In this document: positions 40,401 to 63,380 of the stretch, piece by piece | Position numbering within the stretch: position 1 is the stretch's first letter | Layout of the letters: the number at the start of each line of letters is the position of its first letter | Source: Candidatus Binatia bacterium | GTDB taxonomy: Bacteria; Desulfobacterota; Binatia; HRBIN30 | Assembly (NCBI GenBank): GCA_038245295.1 | Contig: JBBRSP010000009.1 | Coordinates: 168,241 to 232,240 of the forward strand | Direction: 5' to 3' | DNA: 64,000 nucleotides | The notes under the pieces: model-generated | What the model was told of the DNA's origin: nothing | Databases searched by the model: none | What the model saw: only the letters and a program-made list of their open reading frames with translations | Position numbers and translations under genes: made by a program

Positions 40401-40947
40401 GTTCGCCGAATGCGGCGAGTGCGGTGAGCTCGTCGTCGCTGAACGGCCGCACCTCGTGGCGGTACATGTGCAACCCGCCAACGCCGACGCCGTTGGCCGT
40501 GAGCGGCACGGAGGCATAGCTGCGCACGCGGGCAACGGTCACCAGTTCCTCGAAGTAGGCGATGCCCTTGGTCGCCTCGGCAAAATCGTCGACGTGGATC
40601 GCGCCGGATGGCGAAAGGGAAAAGCGCTCCGGCTCGGCCGAATCCCGCTTCACCCGCGTGCCGATGTACGGCGCCATCGCCGGCCCGTGCGAGGCCACGT
40701 AGCGGAGGAAGTCGCCCTCATCGAGCGTGATCGAACCGGCCTCTCCCCCGCACAGCTCGGCCGCCTTGGCGAGGATGCCATGGAGCACGGTCGTCAGGTC
40801 CCCGGGGTGGGCGCTGATCAGCCGCAGCGTCTCGGTCGTGGCCGAGAGCATGGCGCGGACGAGCTGCGAGCTCGACGAAGCTTTTCGGGTCGGACGCTGC
40901 CGCCGACCCGCCGGCCCCTTCTTATCTGGGGCGTCAGTGGCGCTCAT
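34453..40947 (-). CDS. Cytoplasmic hybrid histidine kinase: 9 GAF + HisKA + HATPase + 2 REC + Hpt
   Basis: Nine QAAIAxxNAxL GAF ends; [31 protein letters not shown]; two REC domains; AHTLKS Hpt. Probable start ATG 40947. Confidence 0.93.
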
Positions 40948-41067
40948 GCGGGAATGTGGATACGCCGTGCTGCTGCGGCGGTCAATCGTCAGTCGGACAG
41001 CCTCCAACGGCTTGGGGATCTCACGCAGAGTCGCAAAGGCGCAGAGAGAACACGAGGGCGTTTGCCC

Positions 41068-41163
41068 GGACACCCACCCTTGAGCGGCGTCGCTTATGTT
41101 GGCTCGCTGCGTAGTTGAGCGACCTCTGCGGGAAAGCGTTATCTTTGACGGGGGTGGGTGTCC
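41068..41163. repeat. Inverted pair of GGACACCCACC motifs (REPIN-like) at the BVMO truncation point
   Basis: GGACACCCACC at 41068-41078 and GGTGGGTGTCC at 41153-41163. Confidence 0.65.
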
Positions 41164-41176
41164 TCCTGGTGTCCTC

Positions 41177-42844
41177 TTCGTCGATGATCCGTATGTCGAG
41201 CCTGGGTTCACGCGCCCGCCGCTGACCGACGAAGTCGAGGTGGCCGTGATTGGCGGCGGCTTCGGCGGACTGCTGGTCGGGGCGCGACTGCGTCAGCTCG
41301 GCGTCAAGGACATCCGCGTCATCGAAAAGGGGGGCGACTTCGGCGGCACCTGGTACTGGAACCGATATCCAGGCGTGGCGTGCGACATCGAGTCGTACGT
41401 GTACATGCCGCTGCTTGAAGAGGTCGACTACATTCCCAGGGAGAAGTACAGCCGGGGATCCGAGATATTCGCTCACTGCAAGGCAATCGCCGAGAAGTTC
41501 GACCTCTACCGTAACGTTTGCTTCCAGACCGAAGTGACCGAGCTGCGATGGGACGCGCCCGGTTGTTGCTGGATCATCGCGACCAATCGCGGCGACGCCA
41601 TGAAGGCGCGGTTCGTCTGCTTGTCGAATGGCTTCCTACAAAAGCTGAAGCTGCCCGGCATCCCCGGAATCGAAACGTTCCAGGGGCATTCCTTCCACAC
41701 CAGCCGCTGGGACTATTCGTACACGGGCGGCGACTCGAACGGCAATCTGACAGGTCTCCACGGCAAGCGTGTTGGCATCATCGGCACCGGCGCGACGGCG
41801 GTGCAATGCATCCCTCACCTCGGTGCCGGCGCCTCTCACCTCTACGTCTTCCAGCGCACGCCGTCGTCCATCGACGTACGGGCCAACCGCCCGACGGATC
41901 CCGAATGGGCGAACCACCTCGAGCCCGGCTGGCACCAGAAGAGAATGGACAACTTCCAGATCCTCACCGCCGGCGGCTTCCAGGAAGAAGATCTGGTGAA
42001 CGACGGTTGGACGGACATCATGCGCAAATTGCTGTCGATGATGACGTCGACGGAACATTCCGACATCGGCCCGGAGACGCTGAGTCGAACCATGGAGATG
42101 GCCGACTTCCTCAAAATGGAGCAGATCCGGGCGCGTGTCGACGCGATCGTCAAGGACCCGGCAACGGCCGAGTCGCTAAAGCCCTACTACCGCCAGTTCT
42201 GCAAGCGCCCGTGCTTTCACGACGATTACCTGAAGACGTTCAACTAACCCAACGTCACGCTCGTCGATACCAACGGCAAGGGCGTTGAGCGCATCACGGA
42301 GAAGGGAGTCGTCGTCGATGGCAGGGAGTACGGACTCGATTGCCTCATCTATGCCACCGGCTTCGAAGTCGGGACCGACTATACGCGCCGTGCCGGCTAC
42401 CAGATCAACGGACGAGATGGCGTGACGTTGACGCAGAAGTGGAGCGACGGAGCGACGACGCTGCACGGCATCCACATCCACGGCTTCCCCAACTGCTTCA
42501 TGATGAGCATCGCCCAGTCCGGCTTCACCGTGAACTTTCCCTACCTGATCAACGAGCAGGCCAAGCACATCGCCTACGTCGTCGATCGCGCGCTCGAAAA
42601 GGGGCTGCGATCGCTCGAGGTCACGCAAGAGGCGGAAACCGAGTGGGTCGAAGCGGTCGTCGAGCGTTCGGGTCTGACCACCGACCTCAGCGAGAATTGC
42701 ACCCCAGGTTACTATAACAATGAAGGAATGCCCGGAAGAATCGGCCGGCAGAACGGTTTCTACTTCGGCGCACCGACGGAGTTCGTCGAAATCCTCGCGC
42801 AATGGCGAGCCGACGGTCGGTTGAAGGGTTTGGAATGCCGCTAG
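41177..42844 (+). pseudogene. Baeyer-Villiger monooxygenase pseudogene (in-frame TAA, N-terminus apparently lost)
   Basis: [29 protein letters not shown] fingerprint, GTGATA. TAA at 42245-42247 lies within KTFN*PNVTLVDT and the same frame continues (ATGF...CTPGYYNNEG) to 42844. Confidence 0.88.
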
Positions 42845-46554: not shown

Positions 46555-47192
46555 TCAAGCCTCGCCAGTCTGGTTTCCGCGCGGGTGTTGGCGGACGAAG
46601 GCCAGGCCGCGATTGCCGAAATGCCCGTGCCCTGCCATGCGCCGGGCCTGTTGGCTCAGCGCCCGGTCGAGGAGAAAGCCGCAGCGGGCCAGCGCTTCGA
46701 CCCAGTATTCCTCGGGCTGGCAGTTGACGTGGTGCCAACCCGGCTGACCCGGGGCGGCGTAGGTCATGAACACGTACTTGCGGCTGGAGGCAAAGGTGGC
46801 CAGAAAGTGGTCCGCGAAGCGCTCCTCGACGTGCTCGACGAACTCACAGCTCCACACCACGTCGAAGGTCCGCCGCGGGACGAACGGGCCGCGCACGAAG
46901 TCGTGTACGATATGTGATTCCGGAACGACACTGTCGCGCTTTGCCTGTGGACTTCCATCAACCGCGAGAACCTCGCAACCGGCATCACGAAAGAAGCGGG
47001 CGCAGTGACCTTCTCCACAGCCGACGTCGAGAAGCGTGCGTGCCCCGAGCTCGGCGACCATCCAGCGCCACATCTGCGGGTACCACGTGGCGGGATCGCC
47101 GTGTCGCAACGACGAAACCTCGGGGTCGGCGCGGATGTAACCGCCAAGGTGGCCTGCGTCGATGTTGGTTACGGGGGTGATGACCGAGTCAC
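46555..47192 (-). CDS. Class I SAM-dependent methyltransferase; the 5' end appears frameshifted
   Basis: LLDVGCGEG, VWSCEFVEHV, GWHHVNCQ. Upstream GHLGGYI...GDPATW is in frame but lacks a start; the coupled GTG 47192 is one base out of frame. Confidence 0.75.
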
Positions 47193-48916
47193 GCCGGCGC
47201 CCCGAGACCGACCGCGGCTTCCCACGCCGCCACCGTGCGCAGCCGTCCCAACCCGTACCGACCGAGGGTGCTCGGATCGCCGCCGACGTAGAACAACGCC
47301 TGGAGGCGGCGAAGCATTTCCTGCGTGCGCTCCGTCTGCCACCGAGTGCTTTTTGCTTCCCAGACCTTGTGCCGATTGCCGTCGGGATAGTTCGCGTAGT
47401 CGAGATGCCAGACCTGAATGTCGTCCGGCAGGTACATGTCGTAACCGTGTGTGAACGTGCGCAACGCGAGCGGCGCCTCGTGCCCCGCGTGGATCATCGC
47501 CGCGTCCTCCGGCACCTCGCGAATCCATGCCCCGTGGGTGAAGACGAAGTTGCAGCAGATGAGCCCGGTGCTCTGGTGACGGTCGGACTTACGCTGCGGG
47601 GACATCTGGATGTCAATCCAGCCGTCGGGCTCGATGCGCCTGCAGGTCAGCAAGGGAACGCCGTCGTACTCCGTGCCCGCCCACGGCAGAACGACGCGAC
47701 CCTGCGCATCGAAGGTGAAAGGGGGCGAGCTGGTGGTGAGCAGCGGCTTGCGTCCCGGCTTGCCTTCGAGTTGGTCGATGAGGTTCTCGTCCCAACCCGG
47801 CGCCAGATAGCTGTGCGAGTCGAGGAGCAGGTGATACTCCTCGCCGGCGTAGAGCTTCTGTATGTCGGCGCGAGCCCAGCCGTAGCCGAGACTGGCGTAG
47901 TACGGATAGCGGCGAATGCGGAAGCGTGGGTCGTCGCCATAGTCGTCGAGCTGCTCGTCCTCGTCGGCTTGCCAACAGATGCCGAAGGTCAAACGCTCCG
48001 GGTGTTGCGCTTGCCGGAGCAGGGAGTCGATCGTGAAGGGGAGGAACTGATCTCGGTAGGAGGCGATCGAAACGAAGATGCGCGGCCGAGCCGCTGGCTG
48101 GGGCGCGCGCGCCTTGAAGAAGCGTTGGTGGAACTCGAGGATGTGGTCGGCGCTCAAGCTGCGGAAATGGTAGTGGAAGGCGTTGGGCACCGGCCGATGC
48201 TCGTGCGGCGGCGCCTTCACATAGTCCACCGTGCCCTGTGGGCAGGGGAAAAAGATGTGGTCGGGGGTGAGCGGCCGTTGCTGCGCGATGTCCTCGAGGA
48301 AGGACGCCAGTCGAATCCGGCTCATGTGCGCCGCGATCCAATGTCCCATCGTGACATCGTCACGAAATCCGAAGGCGTTGCCTTCGATGATCTCGTTCCT
48401 GTGGCGCCCCAGCTCGCGCGCAACGTCGACCGACAGGATCATGGAGGCGCCGCTGACGAACGGCCCCGTCCCCGACACGTCTATCCCGATAGCGCCGGCC
48501 ACGACGCGCTGGGGAGACAGCGAATCTGCATAGCGGGCCAAGGTGTGCTGATCGACGTAACTAGCAGCACACACCGTGTAGATCAGGTCGTACCTGTCGG
48601 TTGCGGCGAGATGCGCGAAGGCGATCAGGCGTTTGCGTAAGATACAATCCACCTGCCGGCTCAACTGATCGGCGCAGCCGGCGATCAGCACGCCATCGAT
48701 CTCGCAGATACCGTCGTCCGCAACGACCGGTACCGCTCCACCAATGTGGCGCGATAGCACGTCGTACGCCTGTGGATCGCCGGGGTTGCCGTAGAGGTAG
48801 TAGATATCGAGGCCAGGCACCGTCGTACTGCCCCAGGTGCGCCGGATCGCCTCGATCAGCTCATCGTACGGGGGTGAAGCGCATGCGAGTACTACGATGG
48901 CGATGCGGTTCGACAT
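47189..48916 (-). CDS. Bifunctional glycosyltransferase: GT31-like N-domain plus GT60 (Skp1-hydroxyproline GlcNAc-transferase-like) C-domain
   Basis: N: AIRRTWG...FVSGASMILS...DDVTMG. C: IFVSIASYRD, PERLTFGICWQ, SLGYGWAR, EEYHLLLDSH, LRTFTHGYD. Confidence 0.78.
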   Translation of the reverse strand: MSNRIAIVVLACASPPYDELIEAIRRTWGSTTVPGLDIYYLYGNPGDPQAYDVLSRHIGGAVPVVADDGICEIDGVLIAGCADQLSRQVDCILRKRLIAFAHLAATDRYDLIYTVCAASYVDQHTLARYADSLSPQRVVAGAIGIDVSGTGPFVSGASMILSVDVARELGRHRNEIIEGNAFGFRDDVTMGHWIAAHMSRIRLASFLEDIAQQRPLTPDHIFFPCPQGTVDYVKAPPHEHRPVPNAFHYHFRSLSADHILEFHQRFFKARAPQPAARPRIFVSIASYRDQFLPFTIDSLLRQAQHPERLTFGICWQADEDEQLDDYGDDPRFRIRRYPYYASLGYGWARADIQKLYAGEEYHLLLDSHSYLAPGWDENLIDQLEGKPGRKPLLTTSSPPFTFDAQGRVVLPWAGTEYDGVPLLTCRRIEPDGWIDIQMSPQRKSDRHQSTGLICCNFVFTHGAWIREVPEDAAMIHAGHEAPLALRTFTHGYDMYLPDDIQVWHLDYANYPDGNRHKVWEAKSTRWQTERTQEMLRRLQALFYVGGDPSTLGRYGLGRLRTVAAWEAAVGLGAPA

Positions 48917-48974
48917 TCTGGTTGGGCTCACGGGCGCAAGAATGCCATCGACGGGGGAGCGGCGCTCGCCTCGC

Positions 48975-50114
48975 TCATGCCGGCTCCAGGTCCAGCGCTC
49001 CGACGTTGTGGAGCTGATCGATCACCGACTGGAGGCTGCCGCCCAAGGCGCCGGGCGCCAACTGGAAACGGTTTTCGAGTCGGCCCTGGAGGTCCGCCAG
49101 GTCGAGCTTACCGTCACAGAGCTCCCAAATGGCGGCCGCAGAGGGGTTTAGGGAGAGCGTGTCGGAGCGACCGGGTATCTCGAGCAGGGTGCGGTCGAGG
49201 ACGCGGCCGACACGCACGCCGGGACGCCGCCGCGGCCGCAGCATAGCGTGGTCGCCACCTGCCGCGCGCCGCGCGCAGTACTCTTCGAGCAGGGCAAGGA
49301 CCTCGTGTCCGCTTCCGGAGCTCGCGCGTCCGGGGTCGACGCTTGTCCACGGCTGGTAGAGATGCTGGTTCCACACACTGTCGCCGTCGGCCGACTCGAT
49401 AGGCTGACCGTAATGGATCAATACCGCCTGGCTTGGGCCCGCCCCCGTGTCGACGCCGAGATCGGTCACGGCGTGCGCGATACGAGCCTCGGCGGCGGCG
49501 ATCGCATAGGCCATGTCGGCAACGCGGTCGCTCTTGCCGTCGACTCCGGCCGCCATTTCCGCCCGGATGATGCTCATTAGCTCCAGCCACCTGGCAGCCA
49601 TCCGGCGCAAGTCGCTGGCGTGGATGAGCACCGGCAGGGTCACGGGCGGGAGCGCCAGCCTGCAGTCGACGCAGAAGTTCTCGAGGAACGCCAGGTTGGG
49701 CCCCAACCCGAAGTGCTCCGACCCTGATACCCCGCTGCCGTTGTCAGGCAAGGCCGGCCAGGCGGTCGCCCGCGCTTGCCCCGGCCCGACCTCGGTTTCC
49801 ACCGAAGCGCGGAACACGCTATCCGGCCGGACCAGCAGGATCGTACCGTCGATGCGCTCCGTGAACAGCCACTCGAGCAGCGCCGCGGCGGTGTTGTAGG
49901 GTGGGTAGCTGTCGCCGGTGTACGGGTGCGGCGACCAGCACGAGGTGGCAACGACACGCGCGAGGCGCTGGCGCGGGAGCGGCTCTCCCGGTGCGACGGC
50001 GGTCAAGCGGACCAACTCCCCCGGCTGCCGAACGCGGCCCCACGAGTACTCGAGGAGCTCGGAGCGCCACTGCGCCGCATCGTCGGCTATCGTGCAGAAG
50101 ACGGTGTAGATCAC
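48975..50114 (-). CDS. HPAT/SERGT (GT95/GT96)-like glycosyltransferase domain with C-terminal PqqD/RRE domain
   Basis: YTVF...QW...YSW..VRQPGELVRL...WSPHPYTGDSYPPYN...LEWL; C-terminal SLNPSAAAIWELCDG...QLHNVGAL. GTG 50114 overlaps the previous stop. Confidence 0.75.
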   Translation of the reverse strand: MIYTVFCTIADDAAQWRSELLEYSWGRVRQPGELVRLTAVAPGEPLPRQRLARVVATSCWSPHPYTGDSYPPYNTAAALLEWLFTERIDGTILLVRPDSVFRASVETEVGPGQARATAWPALPDNGSGVSGSEHFGLGPNLAFLENFCVDCRLALPPVTLPVLIHASDLRRMAARWLELMSIIRAEMAAGVDGKSDRVADMAYAIAAAEARIAHAVTDLGVDTGAGPSQAVLIHYGQPIESADGDSVWNQHLYQPWTSVDPGRASSGSGHEVLALLEEYCARRAAGGDHAMLRPRRRPGVRVGRVLDRTLLEIPGRSDTLSLNPSAAAIWELCDGKLDLADLQGRLENRFQLAPGALGGSLQSVIDQLHNVGALDLEPA

Positions 50115-51061
50115 CCGCCGCCTCCTGCTGCGACGGGAAGACCCACGAACTGAGGGGCGACCACACCACCGCGGAAATGGCCCCAGCCGAGGCGCGTGTC
50201 GGGATCGGGCTGGGCGGCGCGGTGTAACCACGTCGTGACGGCGAAACGACTGTCGGCAAACTCGCCGGACGGACAACGAACCGGCATCGCCTCGTGAAAC
50301 TCGGCGCTGCGGAAGACCACCATGCGATTGGAAATCGGCTCGACGCTCTCGAAGGTTGCGGCCGCTCGTCTCTCGCCGTCCTCCTCGATGCAGTCGTACA
50401 GTCGCAGCTCGCCCCCGGCGAAGCCGCGCGGCTGGCGGTGGACGTAGTAGATACACGACAGTTCTCGCGGGCACGTCGGCGACTCATCGGCATGCACCTT
50501 GTAGAACTGGCGGCTGCGCGCCGCGGTGAGCTGCGACTCCACCCCGCTCAAAGGTACAACAGGTACACCCAAGGTCCTGGCCAGCAGCGGATACCAGACG
50601 AGCAGCCGATTCTGCAGCATGCGCGCATGAGCCGAGTCGCCGAAGCGCGGAATCACGAGGTTCTGCCGGTGCCCTGCCGTGTCTCCGGCGACCGTGCCGG
50701 TCTCGAACTGTTCCTCCGATGCCACCGCAAGGACAAGCATGTCCGCGTGTTCCGCCGGGCTCAAGAAGTCATCGATGGCCATGTAGTGGGCGCGGCGAAT
50801 GATGATCGGTTGTGCCCCCCCCGTCGCGTGAGGCTGCACCAGCACCGGGGGTTCGCTGATCACCGAGACGACCTGGTCGGCGCGGAACGTGCACGCCACG
50901 GTTCCCTCTTGCAGCGGCAATTGGATCAGGTCGCGCGACGTCGGGGACGCCAGCGCCGCAAACAGGGCGCGCAGCTCGGCGGCGTCCTCCGCCAGTGCCA
51001 CCTCGTGGGTGTGGCCGCCGGCGAGCTGGACACGCAGTCGAATGGTGCGGACAGCGTTCAT
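50111..51061 (-). CDS. 2OG-Fe(II) oxygenase, prolyl-4-hydroxylase-like, with extra N-terminal domain
   Basis: FYKVHAD, SCIYYVH, GGELRLYD, PISNRMVVF, HEAMPV, RFAVTTW (HxD...H...R). Confidence 0.85.
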   Translation of the reverse strand: MNAVRTIRLRVQLAGGHTHEVALAEDAAELRALFAALASPTSRDLIQLPLQEGTVACTFRADQVVSVISEPPVLVQPHATGGAQPIIIRRAHYMAIDDFLSPAEHADMLVLAVASEEQFETGTVAGDTAGHRQNLVIPRFGDSAHARMLQNRLLVWYPLLARTLGVPVVPLSGVESQLTAARSRQFYKVHADESPTCPRELSCIYYVHRQPRGFAGGELRLYDCIEEDGERRAAATFESVEPISNRMVVFRSAEFHEAMPVRCPSGEFADSRFAVTTWLHRAAQPDPDTRLGWGHFRGGVVAPQFVGLPVAAGGGG

Positions 51062-53097
51062 GACCTCACCGTCGGATCGCCCGGATCGTCCAGATCGCGT
51101 ATTCCGTGCAGATCTTGCCAATCCGACAGTAAGCGCACAGCCTCCTGAGCATCGCTGAATCGCAGTTGCGCCGCCGGCCGACGTTCGGCGACCCGGCACA
51201 GGCGCTCGACGGCGCGATTACGGTCGATTTGGAAGTCGAGTGATGCAGTGATCAGTTCCGCAACCGCTGCCGCGGGTGACAGCGACACGAGAGCCGTGCG
51301 CCCGCACAGCTGCTGGACTGCAATCACGATGCTCGCCAGCGGAGTGGGCGTCGGGCGGCGGCCGCCGTCACCGGCGCTAGAGTCCTCGGCGCCGAACGGC
51401 AGCACCAGGTTGTCCTGGACGCGAATGCCGACCACGTCCGACTCGAGCAAGTCCCAGCCCGCGGACTGCATGGCACTGCCGATCGAGTCGTCGCCGTCGG
51501 CGAGATCGCCGACGATCACCAGTGCCTCCCCGGCGCGCGTAAAGGCAGCCCCGTGCAACCACGCATGCCGCGGCCGCGCTCGGGTCAGGATCGGTACGGC
51601 GAGGCGCTTCACAAGGCCGCCGAGCTGGGCTGCGTCCGCTACCTCGCCAAGGTGTTTCCCGTCGTGCACGACGACATGGTTGGTGGTGCCGGAGACGATT
51701 TCGAATTCGGTGATGACATTGCACGGTAGCTGCCCCGGACCGCCGTCGAAGCTTGCGCCGACCCGAGACAACACATGCGGAGTGCGGCTGCGGATGGCGA
51801 TCTGCAGGTTCTCAAAGGTCAAGTAGACGCTGTCCAGCGCTGCTGCTCCGGAGTGAGCGCGTATGACCAAGGGCGGGTGGGCGGATATATTCGCCGGCGC
51901 GCCGGTGGCGAGGCTCTGCGGGGTGAGGAAACTCTCGGGCCACTCGCGCATCCACGCCGGGTTGATGCGCTGGGTGACGCGATTCCAAGAATACGGCCCC
52001 TCGGACTCTTCGATCATGACGCCGCGATCGAGCCCGACGCAGTCGCTGATGGCGTGTCGACCACGCTGGAGCGAAACACCGGTGGCGGGTATCTCGTTCC
52101 ACAGAAACCGGAAGGGCTCGTGCTTGCCGCGATTACCCCGGTAACGCTGGATGAGCGAGGTGAACGTGCTGGTCATCGTTCCGATGAAGTTCTTCGACTC
52201 GGCGGCGACCAGTTGCGAGAGGTAGGCCAGGCTCAGGCTGTCTTGCTGCGGCAGCTGCGTGAAGTCGGCCGCGTAGGCATCGAGAATGTGCCAATCGATG
52301 AAGAAATGACGCGGATAGGCGAGCGTCAGCGGTCGGAAGAAGGGATCGTCACGCTCGTCGGTGACGATGACGAGGGGATCGTTGCGGTCGAAGATCTGGT
52401 CGAGCGCCTCGATCGCGTCCTCCGGCTGCCGGTCGAGCGTGGTGACTCCGTAGGTGACTTTGAAATCGCCGCGCCGCATATGCACGGCGTTGAACGAGCC
52501 GAGGTCCGCCGCCACTCGTTTGGCCAGATCGGCGAACGGTGGCTTGGGGCGCATGTTTTCGAGAAGGCGATGTACCGAACGCCGCAACTCGGCGTCGAGA
52601 TAGAACTGGTAAGAGTAGAAGCAAAGATTGTTGCGGCGCCGTGGTTGCGACGGATCGGTGCCCGGTACAAACGGACTCTCCGAGAGCCTCAGCACGGGGA
52701 ATCGGTCGAGGTCTTCGCCGACGGTGAGCCAGTGCTCGCGCCCCCGGGCGAAGCCGCGTGCCTGTGCAGAAGACAGGTCCAGGGTGCACGGGAAGTAGAA
52801 GGCCACATCGCCGAGAGAGTGGTCGGTGAGCTCGAGTGCCTCGAGACCCTCCAGATCGACCGACGCGCTGTCGGCCCACGGCACCGGCAGGTCGATGAGG
52901 TCGGTGATCCGGCTCGGGCGCTCGTTGCTCACCCGGCCGTTGTAGGAAACGATGTTGGCCGGAGGAGAGATGTTCCCTTCGAGCACCAGAAAGCGATTGG
53001 TCAGGTGCGCCAGGATCACGCCGATCTCGATCGACATGACGCCGTTGCTCAGTCCGGCGTTGCCGGACATGTAGTTGGTGTAAGAGAGATGTCTCAT
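51058..53097 (-). CDS. O-fucosyltransferase-like (GT-B) domain fused to a degenerate HprK-like domain
   Basis: GLSNGVM..LAHLTNRFLVL, AVHMRRGDF, IVTD, FIGTMTSTFT; C-terminal WLHGAAF...ALVIVG...GWDLLESDV. Confidence 0.75.
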   Translation of the reverse strand: MRHLSYTNYMSGNAGLSNGVMSIEIGVILAHLTNRFLVLEGNISPPANIVSYNGRVSNERPSRITDLIDLPVPWADSASVDLEGLEALELTDHSLGDVAFYFPCTLDLSSAQARGFARGREHWLTVGEDLDRFPVLRLSESPFVPGTDPSQPRRRNNLCFYSYQFYLDAELRRSVHRLLENMRPKPPFADLAKRVAADLGSFNAVHMRRGDFKVTYGVTTLDRQPEDAIEALDQIFDRNDPLVIVTDERDDPFFRPLTLAYPRHFFIDWHILDAYAADFTQLPQQDSLSLAYLSQLVAAESKNFIGTMTSTFTSLIQRYRGNRGKHEPFRFLWNEIPATGVSLQRGRHAISDCVGLDRGVMIEESEGPYSWNRVTQRINPAWMREWPESFLTPQSLATGAPANISAHPPLVIRAHSGAAALDSVYLTFENLQIAIRSRTPHVLSRVGASFDGGPGQLPCNVITEFEIVSGTTNHVVVHDGKHLGEVADAAQLGGLVKRLAVPILTRARPRHAWLHGAAFTRAGEALVIVGDLADGDDSIGSAMQSAGWDLLESDVVGIRVQDNLVLPFGAEDSSAGDGGRRPTPTPLASIVIAVQQLCGRTALVSLSPAAAVAELITASLDFQIDRNRAVERLCRVAERRPAAQLRFSDAQEAVRLLSDWQDLHGIRDLDDPGDPTVRS

Positions 53098-53699
53098 GGC
53101 GCTGATCGAGTCGGCGCGATCGGGTGGTAGTGGACGAAGATGGCAGCGTAGTAGTCGCCGTGCAGGGGATAAGGCCGCCCATGCGCGAGGCGGGTGCCCT
53201 CGTAGAAAACCAACTCGCCGGGTGCCAGATCGATCTGGCTCACCGTGTCATCGATGGTCTCGAGATGCAGCGGCCACGGGCTGTCGAGTGCGAAGTCGAT
53301 GCAGATTGCCGAGCTGATGACGTGGGTCGAGCGATCCACGTGAGTAGAGAGGAAGGTGCCACGCTGATAGACGCGTATGCCGTAACAATAGGAGACGGCC
53401 AGCCGCATGCCCGCCCAGGCCTCGTGCTCCGGCTGCAGATCCAGGGCGAGCTGTGCGTTGAACTCTTTGTCTTCATAGATGAGGGAAGGAATCGTACCGC
53501 GATCGGCATTGCCGATCTCATCGATCTTGCCCTCGGCACGAAAGCGGTCGGCGTTGATCTGCAGATGGTCGAGCAAGCGGGCGTGGACGGCAGGAGAGAG
53601 GGCGCCCCGGCAAAAGCCCAACCCCCGGTAGTGGGCCGCGGCTTGCATTTCACTCTGCCGTTGCCGGAGGAAGGCAGGGGCTTCGAGCTCGGGAATCAC
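53094..53699 (-). CDS. 2OG-Fe(II) oxygenase-like protein
   Basis: YGIRVY, STHVDR (HxD), WPL, LVFYEG, AHGRP, FVHY; 4-bp overlaps on both sides. Confidence 0.78.
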   Translation of the reverse strand: MIPELEAPAFLRQRQSEMQAAAHYRGLGFCRGALSPAVHARLLDHLQINADRFRAEGKIDEIGNADRGTIPSLIYEDKEFNAQLALDLQPEHEAWAGMRLAVSYCYGIRVYQRGTFLSTHVDRSTHVISSAICIDFALDSPWPLHLETIDDTVSQIDLAPGELVFYEGTRLAHGRPYPLHGDYYAAIFVHYHPIAPTRSAP

Positions 53700-55015
53700 G
53701 ACGCCTTCCTCCTGCCAACGGGACGCCGATGGTGCAGCCGGTTGCGGGCGTCCAGGGCCAGGTCGAAGAAGCGCCGCTCGAGATCGCTCGACGCCCGCGC
53801 CCGGTAGCTCTCGAGATCGGCGCGCAAGAGGTCACTTTGGGCGAAGAGGTGTTTGTGCCATTCCGAGTTTCGAAACGGGCCGCCGGCGCCGTCGTTGACG
53901 TCGCAGTAGTAGTGGTAGAAGGAACCGTCCGGGATCGTCTCCTGCTGCGGCGGCAGCACGGCGAACTGGGGGGTGTCCAACAACTCGTAGTCGATGCCGT
54001 TGGGCGTCAGCGCCATGGCGAAGCACGCCATCTCCGCCACCCAGGTGGCCTGCCCCGGAAGGTCCAGGACCTTGCCCAGGAGGAACAGGATCTGTGCAGA
54101 GCGGAAGCAGTCGCGAATGACCTTCTGGTTGCGCACCGTTTGGCCGGTGACGAACACGGTCACACCGCCTGGCTTGAGCGGCGTTTCGCAGCCGATCGAT
54201 GCCAGCAGCTTGTTCAGGTCGATACCGCGGCCGCACGACAAGCCGCTCATGAAAGGCTGTTCGCCGATCATGGCGTTCCGAGCGAGCGCGTTGCCGCTTG
54301 GAAACAGGTCTTCGCGCAGATTGCCGTAGAGGAAGATATCGGTGTCCATGAGGCACACGACGTCGTCGGCTTCGACGTAGGGGGCGATCGCATGGAGCGC
54401 CTCGACGCGGTTCAGTGCCACGTGGCCGCCGCGGTTCTCCGAGAAGTCGATGTCATGGCTGCGCCCGTGGTTGGTCCCCGTGAGCGCTTGCACCCCGTAG
54501 ACGTTCAAGAGACGGGTGAGCTGCGGGGAGAACGAGGTGTGATCGTTGCACACGACCACCGTGATGTCCCACCCGAGGGGCACCTGGCCTACGAGCGACT
54601 CGAAAAGAATCGCCAACTGCCAATGAAAATAAGCGCGGTCTTCAATGCCGAATACAAACCGAACTGGTGGGCGGCCGGCCACCTCCGCGGCGAGGACGGG
54701 GCTGGAGGCATCGGCACGGCCCGGGAGTGCCGCGGCGCCGGTTTCGATCAGGTTGAAATTGCGAAACGCCAGTAAGGCAGCGGCAACGTCGGCGAGAACA
54801 TCAACCTCCGCTCCCGCATACTGCGCCCGTAACTCCGCAAGCATGCCGGGAAGCGTGTGGGTCCCGTCGCAGAGTTTCCAGATCGCCGCCCCGGATTCGT
54901 TCAACGCATAGGCCCGGCTCCCCTCCGGGAGCAGCAGCACTATCTCGTTGGCAACTTCAAAGGCCTTGATGTCGGAACACCGTCTCGGGCGCTGGGTACG
55001 TGCCAGATCGGTCAC
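53696..55015 (-). CDS. N-terminal PqqD/RRE domain fused to an HPAT/SERGT-like (GT-A) glycosyltransferase domain
   Basis: AYALNESGAAIWKLCDGTHTL...FRNFNLIE; then FVFGIEDRAYFHWQ...ALNRVEAL...LMDTD (DxD)...WVAEMACF...HY. Confidence 0.78.
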   Translation of the reverse strand: MTDLARTQRPRRCSDIKAFEVANEIVLLLPEGSRAYALNESGAAIWKLCDGTHTLPGMLAELRAQYAGAEVDVLADVAAALLAFRNFNLIETGAAALPGRADASSPVLAAEVAGRPPVRFVFGIEDRAYFHWQLAILFESLVGQVPLGWDITVVVCNDHTSFSPQLTRLLNVYGVQALTGTNHGRSHDIDFSENRGGHVALNRVEALHAIAPYVEADDVVCLMDTDIFLYGNLREDLFPSGNALARNAMIGEQPFMSGLSCGRGIDLNKLLASIGCETPLKPGGVTVFVTGQTVRNQKVIRDCFRSAQILFLLGKVLDLPGQATWVAEMACFAMALTPNGIDYELLDTPQFAVLPPQQETIPDGSFYHYYCDVNDGAGGPFRNSEWHKHLFAQSDLLRADLESYRARASSDLERRFFDLALDARNRLHHRRPVGRRKAS

Positions 55016-55024
55016 TCGTTCCGC

Positions 55025-55510
55025 TTACTTCTTTTCGTCCTCTTCTCGGCCTTTCGAGGGCTCGACGTGCTCGTCGTTGGCTGCGGTTGCGTTCTTCGCG
55101 CGGCGCCGCACGGCAGCCGCACCGACGCCGGCCAGACCAGCCGACAAGGCGGCGAGACCACCGGCCGTCAAGGCCGGAGCTTTGACCATCGGAGCCATCG
55201 TCGGGGCCGGCGCCCTCGTCGGCGCCATCATCGTCGGCTCCATCATCGGCGCCATGGTCGGCGGCATGGTCGGCGGCACTTGACCGTGCGCGGTTCGCGC
55301 GCCAATGGCCGCACCAAACGGGATCGATAGGATCACAGGTGCTACCCAGGTGCTGAGTGCCGTTCGGCGTGTGATCGGCCTGGTCAACGCCGGCTGTGAA
55401 GCGGCGGACACACCGTGCTCGGAGTCGTCGCGCCCAGCGAGTTGGCGGCGCAGTTCCTCGATCTCCGCCAGAAGCTGTTTCTTTGACTTGTCGTTGTCGC
55501 CTGACGCCAT
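55025..55510 (-). CDS. Putative RiPP-like precursor: Tat-type leader, Pro/Thr/Met repeat core, C-terminal IPTL-CTERM-like anchor
   Basis: GAGGAGG RBS; ITRRTALSTWVAPVILSIP...TAHG|QVPPTMPPTMAPMMEPTMMAPTRAPAPTMAPMVK-APALTAGGLAALSAGLAGVGAAAVRRR; first gene of the operon. Confidence 0.75.
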   Translation of the reverse strand: MASGDNDKSKKQLLAEIEELRRQLAGRDDSEHGVSAASQPALTRPITRRTALSTWVAPVILSIPFGAAIGARTAHGQVPPTMPPTMAPMMEPTMMAPTRAPAPTMAPMVKAPALTAGGLAALSAGLAGVGAAAVRRRAKNATAANDEHVEPSKGREEDEKK

Positions 55511-55651
55511 GCCACGCCCTCCTCGTCCAGTTTGCCAGGCAATTTCCTATACCGCGGGTGCGGGCATTGCAATGGCTTTTGAAGGGCCCGCACCCGCGCC
55601 GCGGATGGCTCCCGATTCCGCGGCGACCGTGCTAGTGCGAGCCCGCCTACG

Positions 55652-56692
55652 ATGTCCAGTCCACTGATCTTTGTCGCCATCGCGGCCTACAGCGACCCCG
55701 AGTTGCCGCGCACGCTGCGCGACGCGCTCGAGCAGGCACGTTGGCCGGATCGCCTTCGCTTCGGGATTTGCTGGCAAGCCGATCCGACAGACGCGCTGTG
55801 CCTCGACGAATTTCGTTCCGACGCGCGCTTCCGCATCATCGACCGGACCGTCGCCGAGAGCGCGGGCGGGCCATGGGCGCGCAATCGCGCTCAGTCGCTC
55901 TGGCGCGGCGAAGCCTATACGCTGCAGGTCGACTCGCACATGAAATTCGAGCCAGAGTGGGACTCGAAGCTCATCGAAATGCTGGCGGCGCTGCCGAGCG
56001 CCAAGCCGCTGCTGAGCATGAACGCGCCGCTCTTTTGGTTTGACGAAAATGGCGGGCTGCAGCGACGCTTCGACATGGGCGTGCCGACGACCCGGGTGCG
56101 CGGCTGGGAGGCGTCGAGCGGCTGGGCCCCCTGGTTCGATTTCGGCCCGCCGAATCGCCAAACACCCGGCCGCACCCGCTTCGTGAGCGGCGCCTTCGTC
56201 TTTACACGCGGCGAGTGGAACGTCGAAGTACCCCAGGATCCGGACCACTACTATTGGGGCGAAGAGTTCAGCGTCACGGTGCGTTCCTTCACCTGGGGCT
56301 ACGACCTCTTTCTGCCGACGGAGGTCGTCGCCTGGCACCTGATGCACAGAACCGCCCCCCGGCGGCATTGGGAAAAGGGGGAAACGGTCGTTCAACGCCG
56401 CAACGCCGTCGCCTTCGAGCGCCTGCGGCGCCTCGTCTACAGTGCCGAGGGACACTGGCTCGGTCCGTACGGCCTGGGGCGAGTTCGCAACTTGCGTGAT
56501 TACGAAATCTACGCCGGCTTCGATCTGTCCCGCAAGCGCGCTCATCCCGACGTCTTCACGGGCGCCAATCCCGCTCCGGTGACGATCCGCCACGCCGAGG
56601 ATTGGAACTCCTGCCTGACATGGGAGGAAGCGAAACGCCGCGGTCTCGATCGACCCGGCGCCGGGCAGGAACCCACCGGAGAGGCCGGCTAA
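55652..56692 (+). CDS. GT60-like ([Skp1]-hydroxyproline GlcNAc-transferase family) glycosyltransferase
   Basis: IFVAIAAYSDPEL, PDRLRFGICWQ, SAGGPWAR, GEAYTLQVDSH, YWGEE, RSFTWGYD; divergent from the precursor. Confidence 0.85.
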   Translation: MSSPLIFVAIAAYSDPELPRTLRDALEQARWPDRLRFGICWQADPTDALCLDEFRSDARFRIIDRTVAESAGGPWARNRAQSLWRGEAYTLQVDSHMKFEPEWDSKLIEMLAALPSAKPLLSMNAPLFWFDENGGLQRRFDMGVPTTRVRGWEASSGWAPWFDFGPPNRQTPGRTRFVSGAFVFTRGEWNVEVPQDPDHYYWGEEFSVTVRSFTWGYDLFLPTEVVAWHLMHRTAPRRHWEKGETVVQRRNAVAFERLRRLVYSAEGHWLGPYGLGRVRNLRDYEIYAGFDLSRKRAHPDVFTGANPAPVTIRHAEDWNSCLTWEEAKRRGLDRPGAGQEPTGEAG

Positions 56693-57738
56693 CGCTCCAT
56701 GAGATAGCGGTCCAATTGACCGATACGGCTGGTGCCGTATTTGGCGCCGTACCAGGCAGCGGTTCTGCGTACTCCCTCCGCCAGGCTCATCTGCGGCGTC
56801 CAACCGAGCTGCTGGCGGGATTTAGCGAGGTCTGCGGCGCGGCTCTTCACGCCGACGGGTTTGTCGAGTTGCTTGTCGATTTGCATCGGCTGCCAGTCGA
56901 CGGCCCGGAAGATCTCATCCAGCAGTTGCAGGATGGTATGGTGTTGGTCGGTGCCGATGTTGATGACATCGAAGCTCGAAAGCCGCGCACCCGCCAAAGC
57001 CAGGCCCGTGCAGGTGTCCTGCACGTAGGTGAAGTTGCGCGTCTGGAGACCGTTGCCCCAGATGGGGAAGGGGTCCAGACGCGCCATGGCCTTGGCGATG
57101 AGGGCGACCACCGCATGGCTCTCGTTCTCGCGTTCGCCGTAGGCGGTGAAGACACGACAGGCCACGGCGCTGAGCCCATGCTGCTTGACGAAGGCGCGCA
57201 GTTGCAGCTCGCCCATGAGCTTGGCCCAGCCATATTCGCCGTCTGCGAACGCCTTGCCCGGTTCGTCGAAGTTGGCGTCGCTTTCCTTCAGCAGCAGGCG
57301 CTCCGAGTCGCAGGCCTGCAAATGGGTGGGGTAGACGCACGCCGAACTGGCGAACACGATCTTCTCGACGGCGGCGGCCGCGGCGGCCGCGAATACCGTA
57401 TGGTCGAGCAGCATGTTGTTGGTGCACTCGACCGGATGCGTTTCGATGTAACCGCGTCCGCCGTGCATGGCCGCCAGGTGAAAAACGATTTCATGTCCGC
57501 CGGCCGCCTGCCGGGCCATCTCCGCAGAACGCAGGTCGCCCTGCAAGAAACGAATGTCGTGGATTACGTCGGCCAGGTTCTCCCGTGAGCCGCTCGACAG
57601 GTCGTCGGCGACCGTGACCCGCGCGCCGGCCCGCAAGAGCAACTCGGTGAGGTGGCTGCCGATGAACGAGGCGCCGCCGGTCACCAGTACGGTGCGGCCG
57701 CGATAGAAGCCGTCGAATTCGGGGTGCGGTGTTCCCAT
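56689..57738 (-). CDS. NAD-dependent epimerase, GDP-mannose 3,5-epimerase-like
   Basis: VTGGASFIGSH, HLAAMHGGRGYI, FASSACVYP, LKESDA, YGWAK, GVKSR. Confidence 0.8.
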   Translation of the reverse strand: MGTPHPEFDGFYRGRTVLVTGGASFIGSHLTELLLRAGARVTVADDLSSGSRENLADVIHDIRFLQGDLRSAEMARQAAGGHEIVFHLAAMHGGRGYIETHPVECTNNMLLDHTVFAAAAAAAVEKIVFASSACVYPTHLQACDSERLLLKESDANFDEPGKAFADGEYGWAKLMGELQLRAFVKQHGLSAVACRVFTAYGERENESHAVVALIAKAMARLDPFPIWGNGLQTRNFTYVQDTCTGLALAGARLSSFDVINIGTDQHHTILQLLDEIFRAVDWQPMQIDKQLDKPVGVKSRAADLAKSRQQLGWTPQMSLAEGVRRTAAWYGAKYGTSRIGQLDRYLMER

Positions 57739-61980: not shown

Positions 61981-62170
61981 GGCTCGGGTTGCGGGACATC
62001 CACATCCTGGCCCGCCCAATCCTACCATCCGGCGCGCCGAGCGAAGGTTATCGAAGTGAGTCGTTGCCTGGGCTCACACGGAGTACACGTGAACTGCTTC
62101 GCCCCGGCCTCGCCATGCGGCAGGAGCCCGGGCCGACGCCTCCGAATGTGGATGTCCAATGAAGGTGCCC
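61981..62170. repeat. ~190-bp MITE/REPIN-like element, copy 1 (12-bp inverted repeats near its ends)
   Basis: Near-identical to 63190-63380; GGACATCCACAT at 61994-62005 and ATGTGGATGTCC at 62146-62157. Confidence 0.9.
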
Positions 62171-62192: not shown

Positions 62193-62221
62193 TTGATCGA
62201 TTCACCTTACAGGTGTACGGT
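62193..62221 (+). promoter_or_regulatory. Sigma70-like promoter of the TA operon with operator palindrome
   Basis: TTGATC-N17-TACGGT; CACCT-tac-AGGTG dyad (62203-62215) in the spacer; start codon ~8-11 nt downstream, probably leaderless. Confidence 0.6.
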
Positions 62222-62231
62222 GCTCTCGGTG

Positions 62232-62510
62232 ATGATCCACCGCGTTCACATCACCAAGCGCGCCGAGCGGCAGATCGAGAAGGTTCCGCGGCACATTCGG
62301 GTGAACCTTCTCCTCTGGGTTGCGACGGTTGAGGCTGACGGGTTGGAGGAAACACGAAAGATCCCGGGGTACCACGATGAGCCATTGCGGGGTGACCGAG
62401 CGGGGCAGCGATCGATTCGGCTCAGCCGAAGCTACCGGGCCATCTATGAGATCCGGGGTGGGGCGGTTGAATTCGTCTCTGTCGAGGAGGTCAGCAAGCA
62501 CCACTACTGA
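62232..62510 (+). CDS. RelE/HigB/YafQ-superfamily toxin
   Basis: VHITKRAERQIEKVP...GYHDEPLRGDRAGQRSIRLSRSYRAIY. Confidence 0.85.
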   Translation: MIHRVHITKRAERQIEKVPRHIRVNLLLWVATVEADGLEETRKIPGYHDEPLRGDRAGQRSIRLSRSYRAIYEIRGGAVEFVSVEEVSKHHY

Positions 62511-62519
62511 GGTAAGGCT

Positions 62520-62840
62520 GTGAAAAAACCAACTGCAAAAAAGAGCGCAGCGATCCAACTTCTAGAGCGACTCTCCGGTGGCCCGCTAACGCTTGGCGGC
62601 GCCATCGAAGCGGTGCGCAAGTGCGAAGAGCTTTCCTTGAGTATCTGCGCCGAGAAGCTCGGAATCTCCCGCTCGCACCTGTGCGACGTCGAGAAGGGTC
62701 GTAAGACGGTGAGCCCGGAGCGCGCCGCCGCCTGGGCGCAGATGCTGGGCTACCCGGAGTCCACGTTCGTCCGCCTGGCGCTCCAAGCCGGCTTGGATGC
62801 AGCCGGCCTCAGATACAGGGTTGATATCGAAGCTGCCTGA
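62520..62840 (+). CDS. XRE/HigA-like HTH antitoxin
   Basis: AEKLGISRSHLCDVEKGRKTVSPERA; toxin-first arrangement. Confidence 0.85.
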   Translation: MKKPTAKKSAAIQLLERLSGGPLTLGGAIEAVRKCEELSLSICAEKLGISRSHLCDVEKGRKTVSPERAAAWAQMLGYPESTFVRLALQAGLDAAGLRYRVDIEAA

Positions 62841-63189: not shown

Positions 63190-63380
63190 GGCTCGGGTTG
63201 CGGGACATCTACATCCTGGCCCGCCCAATCCTACCATCCGGTGCGCCGAGCGAAGGTTATCGAAGTGAGTCGGTGCCTGGCCTCACACGGAGTACACGTG
63301 CACTGGTTTCGCCCCGGCCTCGCTATGCGGCAGGAGCCCGGGCCGACGCCTCCGAATGTGGGTGTCCAATGAAGGGGCCC
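63190..63380. repeat. ~190-bp MITE/REPIN-like element, copy 2
   Basis: Direct repeat of 61981-62170 with about nine substitutions and one indel by manual alignment. Confidence 0.9.

Follow-up and report, generated by a model that had tools for sequence, protein, structure and literature searches.

The gene at positions 55025–55510 (minus strand) of a 64,000-nucleotide stretch of DNA from Candidatus Binatia bacterium (contig JBBRSP010000009.1; hereafter the window) encodes a protein of 161 amino acids (aa), followed by a stop codon, and adjoins an operon of predicted oxygenases and glycosyltransferases. As the best explanation, which we regard as on balance probable, this protein is the ribosomal substrate of a leader-recognising, proline-hydroxylating and O-glycosylating operon. 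The precursor family and its operon are undescribed and widespread. An initial annotation of the window had read the gene as a tripartite precursor, with a leader that may serve both twin-arginine translocation (Tat) and binding by a recognition element (RRE) of peptides made on ribosomes and modified after translation (RiPPs), a 34-aa Pro-Thr-Met core and a C-terminal sorting anchor. The precursor itself is real; the interpretation as a whole is partly supported.

A Shine–Dalgarno sequence, GGAGG, lies at 55518–55522, 7 nt ahead of the ATG, and 9 nt separate the stop codon from the start of the next gene, which encodes an RRE fused to a glycosyltransferase (RRE-GT). The precursor is present as one copy in the window's genome. 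A chance open reading frame (ORF) or an opposite-strand gene (plus-strand ORFs 54857–55330 and 54948–55283) was ruled out because conservation tracks the minus-strand frame. From the N-terminus, the protein comprises an amphipathic helix K8–L24 (K-x-x-Q-L-L-A-E-I-E-x-L-x-x-Q-L; 55439–55489, minus strand as for all its parts), which is the first leader module in an alignment of 16 leaders; a twin-arginine motif T47-R48-R49 (55364–55372); a hydrophobic stretch (h-region) W55-V-A-P58-V-I60-L-S-I-P64 (55319–55348); and A74-H75-G76 (55283–55291), a conserved candidate site for signal peptidase I (A-x-[AG]) that would end the leader. The Pro-Thr module Q77–K110 (55181–55282) follows, where prolyl hydroxylation and O-glycosylation are predicted to take place. 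Among its residues are 10 Pro, 8 Met and 5 Thr; each Thr comes directly behind a Pro. The initial annotation had given these counts, as well as residues 46–76, exactly as they stand in the translation. By its hydropathy, the segment A111–V134 (55109–55180), in which A-P-A-L is followed by a Gly/Ala-rich hydrophobic stretch, is a candidate C-terminal transmembrane anchor. The protein ends with a basic cluster R135-R-R-A-K and a charged tail N140–K161 (55028–55108), which we read as cytoplasmic; these 22 residues beyond the cluster were absent from the initial annotation.

A word-based search returned 10 homologues of the precursor, and the homologue alignment, when scanned over genome and metagenome contigs, gave 20 loci with a family member. 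Loci L008–L010, L025 and L026 were left out of the family, since they matched the N-terminal coiled-coil-like helix only, and L023 stops ahead of the W motif. Throughout the family the leader is conserved far better than the remainder of the precursor. In the 16-leader alignment, T47-R48-R49 (16/16), L13, L14, E16 and L24 of the helix and W55, P58, V59, I60, L61, S62 and P64 of the h-region are invariant, and conservation reaches 90 % or more at Q12, I17 and L20. Conservation of the N-terminal helix is on a par with that of the W motif. A74 is invariant in the family alignment A1; from a further alignment, A5, row L012 was left out because a stop codon fell within the coordinates used for it. 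Pfam and NCBIfam, searched with the precursor and leaders, hold no family model for it, and an Atlas search with the precursor gave a single unnamed match (score 0.85), which was uninformative.

When 1.84 billion proteins were searched with a leader-only profile made from the 16 sequences, 95 cluster representatives scored E≤1e-3, of which 44 reached E≤1e-10. We set aside ten of the 95 before motifs were counted, leaving 85: P0154 and P0214, with 9 and 5 recurring weak matches, are repetitive and have no relation to the precursor family, P0215, P0217, P0221 and P0223 are helix-only matches, P0208 is a coiled coil only, P0196 and P0216 are truncated or frameshifted, and P0218 is a fusion without the RR. 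The motif W-x-[ASGT]-P-[VI]-[IV]-L was present in 83 of the 85 representatives. WxxP is thus nearly universal among homologous precursors; the initial annotation had named a lack of its conservation as one of the findings that would speak against its reading. As a separate observation, six proteins of 79–117 aa (P0194, P0198, P0199, P0202, P0206, P0222) share the helix, the RR and a W/L-L-A-P hydrophobic motif and are without the Pro-Thr core; instead, their hydrophobic stretch runs into an amphipathic tail that is strongly basic. They may carry a different cargo on the same leader.

The W motif points to recognition by an RRE. Discrete RREs of lasso peptide systems bind [Y/W]xxPx[L/V/I/F/A], with Y/W and P required, and paeninodin-type leaders carry W in this motif (PMC13381572; here and below, papers cited by PMC number are cited for the excerpts available). 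The invariant W55-x-x-P58-x-I60 fits this pattern exactly, which bears out the resemblance to lasso leaders proposed in the initial annotation. That the precursor, with its leader and core, adjoins two PqqD-type RREs is likewise borne out by the neighbouring genes. The first is the N-terminal domain (residues ~17–90; PF05402, 5.1e-13) of the RRE-GT (53696–55015, minus strand), whose remainder is a retaining-type GT-A glycosyltransferase; the second (PF05402, 2.4e-9) forms the C-terminus of another glycosyltransferase (48975–50114, minus strand). The closest solved relatives of the RRE-GT by sequence profile were TbiB1 (4.3e-5), PqqD and TfuB1. In a model of the RRE-GT with a mean predicted local distance difference test (pLDDT) of 84, the N-terminal domain superposed on TbiB1 with bound leader (5v1v_A) with a TMt of 0.85 (range 0.83–0.86) and a root-mean-square deviation of 1.7 Å. 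Because W55, P58 and I60 fit the published motif and the adjoining RRE is of the TbiB1 type, we infer from motif and modelled fold that the hydrophobic stretch of the leader is bound by the RRE domains at the W motif; this fit is the strongest single argument for such binding. A complex prediction for RRE residues 1–105 (43-row alignment) with the leader (16-row alignment) scored 0.02 against a mark of 0.32; it was run without controls and is used neither for nor against binding.

The leader could also be a cytoplasmic recognition tag and nothing else, its hydrophobic stretches binding enzymes and the product remaining intracellular or being released otherwise. The conservation of W-x-x-P-V-I-L far exceeds the needs of a signal peptide and alone fits a known RRE motif, and the protist Skp1 pathway, which has related enzymes, is wholly cytoplasmic (PMC8724618). 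Nevertheless, RR, uncharged stretch and A-x-A hold the spacing of a signal peptide over 83 sequences, and Pro-Thr glycosylated spacers as well as a terminal helix with a basic cluster would be typical of envelope proteins. We consider a tag without export very unlikely.

The predicted chemistry of the operon involves proline. A 201-aa protein without a Pfam match (53094–53699, minus strand) is a putative prolyl-hydroxylase-like 2-oxoglutarate (2OG)/Fe(II) oxygenase, as judged from its H-x-D…H motif and its fold: H120-x-D122 and H173 are invariant in 12 sequences, and a fold search placed PHD2 and the Pseudomonas prolyl 4-hydroxylase (P4H) at the top (E ~1e-6, TM ~0.5). A second 2OG-Fe(II) oxygenase (50111–51064, minus strand; PF13640, 6.3e-16), with its start placed at about residue 46 of a long ORF, is encoded in the same operon. 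Together, the PHD2/P4H-type fold with its invariant triad and the PF13640 oxygenase are what would be expected of a prolyl-hydroxylating operon, the specificity for Pro being a prediction.

Several glycosyltransferases could act on the resulting hydroxyproline (Hyp). PF11397, a GlcNAc-transferase family that we take to be CAZy GT60/Gnt1, is represented twice above cut-off, by a protein with an extra N-terminal domain (47189–48931, minus strand; 3e-41) and by a divergently transcribed one (55652–56692, plus strand; 3.5e-45), which lies beside the precursor in many related loci. The glycosyltransferase with the PqqD tail matched the Hyp O-arabinosyltransferase family (HPAT; PF23452) in 7/7 orthologues, always below cut-off (best E 2.2e-4), and its best Atlas cluster (score 0.98, possibly its own cluster) carries HPAT on 55 % of members. 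These proteins are the candidates for initiating a glycan on Hyp, and PF11397 includes Thr/Ser-directed enzymes as well (PMC8724618). The catalytic domain of the RRE-GT has the GT6 blood-group transferases, glycogenin and WbbM (retaining GT-A enzymes) as fold relatives and contains an invariant D224-x-D226. The operon further encodes an O-fucosyltransferase (O-FucT)-like protein with an HprK-related C-terminal region (51058–53097, minus strand; PF10250, 4e-6, and TIGR04352, 5.8e-6, both below cut-off) and a methyltransferase (46555–47109, minus strand; PF13489, 1.5e-10), probably its last gene.

Two points weigh against these assignments: the model of the 201-aa oxygenase is of moderate quality (pLDDT 71, TM ~0.5), and the HPAT, O-FucT and HprK matches all lie below curated cut-offs. 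A sequence search of solved structures found nothing for the P4H-like protein (best E 0.48) or the second PF11397 protein.

None of the operon enzymes has a hydrophobic N-terminus (best 19-residue window at most 1.62, compared with 2.53 for the signal peptide of a neighbouring OmpA-family protein), and because of this they appear to work in the cytoplasm. The combination of hydroxylase and glycosyltransferases has eukaryotic counterparts. P4H followed by HPAT (GT95) is the plant route to Hyp-arabinosides (PMC5371791), and P4H, a GT60 polypeptide α-GlcNAc-transferase and then glycogenin-like and fucosyl-transferases constitute the protist Skp1 route (PMC8724618). Mucin-type glycans on Thr/Ser are likewise started by GT60 enzymes (PMC8724618). 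The initial annotation had proposed a surface-displayed glycopeptide and had noted that every Thr follows a Pro. Since the operon includes a PHD2-like hydroxylase, an HPAT-like glycosyltransferase and GT60 enzymes, the likely target is Pro (converted to Hyp) at least as much as Thr.

Two of these proteins have additional features. In the HprK-related region (residues ~509–568), TIGR04352 scored 25.6 bits against a cut-off of 200. The Walker-A motif is GxxGxGK[ST], and on our reading the region seems to be without its Lys; instead of a kinase, it may be a pseudo-kinase that binds peptides. Pfam finds nothing in residues 1–280 of the first PF11397 protein, and these residues correspond to a separate gene in L005, L006 and L007, which suggests a fused extra domain, possibly another transferase.

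We surveyed the core and C-terminus in 21 distinct full-length family members. The segment after the leader was a Pro-Thr repeat of about 30–200 aa, in which P-T is the conserved unit and, according to lineage, M, F, D/E, K or A fill the remaining positions. Because these positions vary, the Met-richness of the window's core is a local trait of few members, and the defined 34-aa Pro-Thr-Met core of the initial annotation gives way to a Pro-Thr repeat module of variable length.

The leader segment that carries the W motif also has the layout of an export signal, with RR after S or T, an uncharged stretch of ~20 residues and A-x-A in the order and spacing of a signal peptide. Within the 14 residues upstream of the W motif, 81/83 representatives have RR, placed 4–9 residues away from it, and 75/83 have it as [ST]RR. 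Charges within ten residues from W occurred in only 5 of the 83, so that the h-region was uncharged in 78, and A-x-[AG] was found in 76/83 at a median of 20 residues past W. A-x-A was present in 62/77 segments, whereas 1000 shuffles of the same segments averaged 37.2 and never exceeded 48. A basic residue preceded the A-x-A site in 44/76, and 62/83 had a TatP-like pattern. The RR and the candidate AxA-type cleavage site, both pointed out in the initial annotation, are thus conserved in signal-peptide geometry across the family, and we consider export through this segment likely. Tat would be the single most likely route, at below even odds. TatC is encoded in the window's genome and in 5/5 other genomes with the cluster, and also in 11/14 control genomes. 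Tat substrates that also have a C-terminal anchor helix are on record, and some of them are later handled by sortase (PMC10924467).

Several results weigh against a Tat signal. None of 16 leaders matched PF10518 and none of 13 matched TIGR01409 at E≤10. In the window's genome, TIGR01409 matched 17 other sites at E≤1, ten of them above cut-off, and the precursor was not among them; these signals have F after RR-x, whereas the precursor family has A, S or V. The RR of a Tat signal is expected within ~35 residues of the N-terminus (TATFIND rule), whereas in this family it follows a long conserved n-region, at a median position of 48 and never before 35. Finally, the best 13-residue window of the h-region has a median of 2.05, more than in those Tat signals of the genome that hidden Markov models (HMMs) detect (1.65); this higher hydrophobicity leans toward Sec/signal recognition particle (SRP) targeting or an uncleaved anchor. 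The Tat signal of the initial annotation is therefore upheld in its conserved [ST]RR, its uncharged h-region and its A-x-A; because the curated HMMs fail and the RR lies at ~48, Tat is a reasonable proposal and not a passed prediction.

If export proceeded through Sec/SRP or YidC, the RR would be part of enzyme recognition or simply n-region charge. This would agree with the lack of matches to curated Tat HMMs, with the relatively hydrophobic h-region and with A, S or V instead of F after RR-x. It would, however, leave unexplained why 81/83 leaders have RR, not KR or RK, mostly behind S or T, and why 44/76 have a basic c-region residue. Moreover, since the enzymes appear cytoplasmic, the cargo should be heavily glycosylated before transport. 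We consider export by these routes rather unlikely.

Alternatively, the pathway could be the same and the RR/hydrophobic segment an uncleaved signal-anchor. The product would then sit in the inner membrane as a two-helix hairpin: the N-terminal helix and the charged C-terminal tail would remain cytoplasmic, and nothing but the glycosylated Pro-Thr loop would face outward. The h-region is at the usual transmembrane threshold (best 19-residue window 1.72), its family median of 2.05 exceeds that of the genome's Tat signals, and both hydrophobic segments are flanked by basic residues where the cytoplasm is proposed to lie. It would also be easier to explain why the N-terminal helix is so strongly conserved if the mature protein retained it. 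By contrast, the enrichment of A-x-A ~20 residues past W (62/77 vs 37.2) speaks for cleavage, two invariant prolines lie inside a 10-residue stretch of the h-region, and the second hydrophobic helix is missing in 6/21 members. A hairpin, too, is in our opinion unlikely.

The C-terminus of the window's precursor is of the type found in 15 of the 21 full-length members: P-[AV]-[LV], a Gly/Ala-rich helix, a basic cluster and a charged, mostly acidic tail of 22–35 residues. The best 17-residue hydropathy of the helix was at least 1.55 in these 15 members (Kyte–Doolittle 1.76 in the window's precursor). Two observations weigh against a membrane anchor as the general end state. Six of the 21 members have another conserved C-terminal module, with Cys and without a strong hydrophobic helix, and a third type (P0155, P0192) ends in I/V-P-V-E-L-x-x-F-x-V/I-D right at the stop; because of both, the membrane-anchored end state is not general. 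The second module was found in L004, L005, L006, L022, P0010, P0011, P0140, P0150, P0162 and P0170 and reads G-R/Q-C-I/V, more P-T repeats, P-T-L-G-M-x-x-x-P-D-S-R-P and A-L-G-x-A-R-A; the accompanying operon is the same as for the anchor type. A lipobox at its Cys was rejected, since the residue ahead of the Cys is R or Q and a long distance separates this position from the signal. P0155 shares the Met-richness of the window's core, and its gene call joins it to an upstream sulfotransferase-like region, possibly as an artefact of gene calling.

The initial annotation had taken this C-terminus for a sorting anchor. Its hydrophobic helix is found in 15/21 members; it is, however, not extreme C-terminal and scores below the IPTL-CTERM cut-off. 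With TIGR04174 (IPTL-CTERM), the precursor scored 15.8 bits (cut-off 20.5), and 3 of 13 family members matched, all below cut-off (best 19.3 bits). Six-frame matches of equal strength numbered 11 in the window's genome and occurred in 9/14 control genomes. Unlike in the IPTL/PEP-CTERM layout, the basic cluster is not terminal, with 22 more residues here and 22–35 in relatives. Membership of IPTL-CTERM was rejected on the grounds of sub-cut-off scores and common six-frame matches of the same strength. The plainer reading takes the segment for a transmembrane helix, the basic residues for a positive-inside cluster and the tail for cytoplasmic.

A true exosortase-type sorting signal made of A-P-A-L, helix and basic cluster would instead send the glycopeptide to the outer envelope and discard the tail. 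Its tripartite form, the near-cut-off IPTL_CTERM scores in 3/13 members and a weak match (E 0.037) to the midcut-by-XrtH family, which has a non-terminal signal, would be in keeping with this. Exosortase-family matches (three of them in the window's genome) were found in all four anchor-type genomes checked, that is, also in 3/3 others, compared with 1/2 non-anchor genomes and 1/14 controls, in a tiny sample of related genomes. On the other hand, all scores are sub-cut-off, equal six-frame IPTL matches are common, the 22–35-residue tail is conserved, and no exosortase-family or sortase gene was found within or beside the cluster. We consider such a sorting signal highly improbable.

Taken together, we picture the pathway as follows. 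In the cytoplasm, the lasso-type RREs would bind W-x-x-P-x-I of the leader and keep the core at the enzymes. The oxygenases would turn prolines of the repeat into Hyp, the HPAT-like and GT60 enzymes would begin glycans on Hyp and possibly Thr, and the GT-A enzyme, the O-FucT-like protein and the methyltransferase would lengthen or decorate them. Release from the RRE would expose the RR/hydrophobic/A-x-A segment as an export signal. Since RR hardly varies in the family and the cargo would already be bulky, the most likely route is Tat. Signal peptidase I would cleave after G76, and the mature Q77–K161 would be held in the inner membrane with a periplasmic glycosylated stalk, a spanning helix and a cytoplasmic charged tail. 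A more specific form of this model is tentative and, in our estimate, doubtful: the h-region of a Tat signal would double as a lasso-type RRE recognition site, and the RRE-GTs would both recruit the substrate and mask the export signal until prolines have been hydroxylated and Hyp/Thr glycosylation is complete, whereupon Tat would export a tail-anchored mucin- or extensin-like glycopeptide.

Synteny is kept among related loci. Of the 15 whose sequence continues past the precursor, 14 have the RRE-GT as its immediate downstream neighbour, and the later operon genes hold their order wherever contigs extend. In L024 (1–1491 of a contig of 1984 bases), the precursor is followed by the 201-aa protein and a PF11397 gene without the RRE-GT between. 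A gene for a NAD-dependent sugar-nucleotide epimerase/dehydratase (56689–57738, minus strand; PF01370, 6.9e-42) follows the divergent PF11397 gene in the window. Family searches found no dedicated leader peptidase and no transporter or exporter among the genes at 46555–57738, which we counted in favour of the initial interpretation. The long ORFs listed within 48975–51199 overlap their upstream genes, by ~360 nt for the second oxygenase and by ~140 nt for the HPAT-like glycosyltransferase. Homology begins downstream of the listed starts (tblastn alignments of the second oxygenase start at residues 37–51), and for this reason the true starts are probably near 51064 and 50114, with overlaps of 4–7 nt. 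Overlaps of this size are typical of translational coupling.

Related loci were found in metagenome-assembled genomes labelled Binatia, Thermodesulfobacteriota, Polyangia, Proteobacteria and Nitrotoga, yet the RRE-GT was detected (E≤1e-30) in none of 300 other sampled genomes from the window's phylum. The cluster is therefore patchy and probably mobile. At E≤1e-5 the RRE-GT had 191 clusters, whose named members are only 'hypothetical' or 'PqqD family'.

Among known systems, the lasso peptide systems TbiA/TbiB1, FusA/TfuB1 and PbaA/PbaB1 share the recognition step: the adjoining RRE is nearest to TbiB1/TfuB1 in sequence and fold, and the leader's W-x-x-P-x-I fits their motif (PMC13381572). The window's operon differs in having neither a lasso cyclase nor a B2 protease and in its glycosyltransferase-fused RREs. 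Moreover, its motif sits in a signal-peptide-like hydrophobic region after RR, and its core is a long repeat instead of a peptide of 15–25 residues.

The nearest published design is that of the linear polyphosphorylated peptides (LPPs; PMC13381572). LPPs are likewise linear, RRE-guided and non-cyclised, with 35–200 aa, a conserved N-terminus and a variable C-terminus, and have a Y/WxxP leader motif and an HprK-type domain in the cluster. Their leader removal is of the signal peptidase I type, by a dedicated enzyme in LPPs and presumably by the housekeeping enzyme here. LPP clusters differ in being found in Bacillota; according to the excerpts of that paper, their RRE is discrete and their kinase active, and they include an NTP-transferase, a dedicated peptidase of the SpI-like kind and an MsbA-like pump. 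The window's operon has hydroxylases, glycosyltransferases and an RR motif, and neither pump nor peptidase.

In the Skp1 pathway (PhyA, Gnt1), soluble cytoplasmic enzymes also work in sequence, a PHD2-type hydroxylase being followed by a GT60-type GlcNAc-transferase and later by glycogenin-related GT-A enzymes and a fucosyltransferase (PMC8724618). Its target is a single Pro in folded Skp1 and it uses neither leader nor RRE, whereas the window's system would target a repeat, with leader-recruited enzymes and a substrate that looks exported. The Hyp-rich glycoproteins of plants (extensins, arabinogalactan proteins and CLE peptides) share Pro-rich repeat substrates and the succession of P4H and an HPAT-type enzyme (PMC5371791); HPATs are described as plant-specific in the excerpts of PMC4738400. 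Unlike the candidates here, those of plants are membrane proteins of the Golgi whose cargo is secretory, and the HPAT match in the window lies below the Pfam cut-off, in an enzyme fused to an RRE.

The chaperones TorD, DmsD and NapD hold a Tat signal until its cargo matures, and in serine-rich repeat glycoproteins, which go with accessory Sec, a long signal peptide is joined to a repeat glycosylated in the cytoplasm and to an anchor at the C-terminus. Both serve as analogies only, without sequence relation, the binding of an RRE to the h-region being a prediction here. No accessory Sec genes were found in the family searches of the window; the rest of the genome was not searched for them. Tat-dependent tail-anchored proteins have the same pairing of an N-terminal twin-arginine signal and a single C-terminal transmembrane helix (PMC10924467). 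Their known passengers, as given in the excerpts, are large, globular and often cofactor-bearing, whereas the one considered here is a short disordered repeat behind a signal that fails the curated HMM.

Elsewhere in the window, a direct repeat of ~190 nt (61981–62170 and 63190–63380; 95–96 % identity, spacing 1209–1210 nt) brackets the genes 62193–62510 and 62520–62840, which read like a toxin–antitoxin pair with a helix-turn-helix partner. A hybrid histidine kinase of 2252 aa is encoded at 34453–41211 (minus strand), with nine GAF matches, HisKA/HATPase, two receiver domains and Hpt.

Full-text literature searches found no description of such a leader/RRE/Hyp-glycosylation system, and in the excerpts of PMC7470986 and PMC12710340, RRE–glycosyltransferase fusions are mentioned solely as unexplored predictions. 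If our reading is true, bacteria of several phyla make Hyp- or Thr-linked glycoproteins with enzyme types of plants (HPAT) and protists (PhyA/Gnt1 of the Skp1 pathway), and these Hyp-glycosylation enzymes are aimed by the leader/RRE logic of RiPPs. RiPP biosynthesis, protein O-glycosylation and protein export, which are usually separate fields, would be joined in one system, and a natural case of Tat moving cytoplasmically glycosylated cargo would be at hand. A signal peptide that is also a recruitment tag would make the ordering of cytoplasmic modification before export testable, and the leader would be a portable tag for site-directed Hyp-glycosylation of repeats. The finding would also bear on the origin of eukaryotic Hyp-glycosylation enzymes. 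For the family itself, it would mean that a RiPP-style leader serves cell-envelope proteins, in a bacterial pathway to hydroxyproline glycoproteins.

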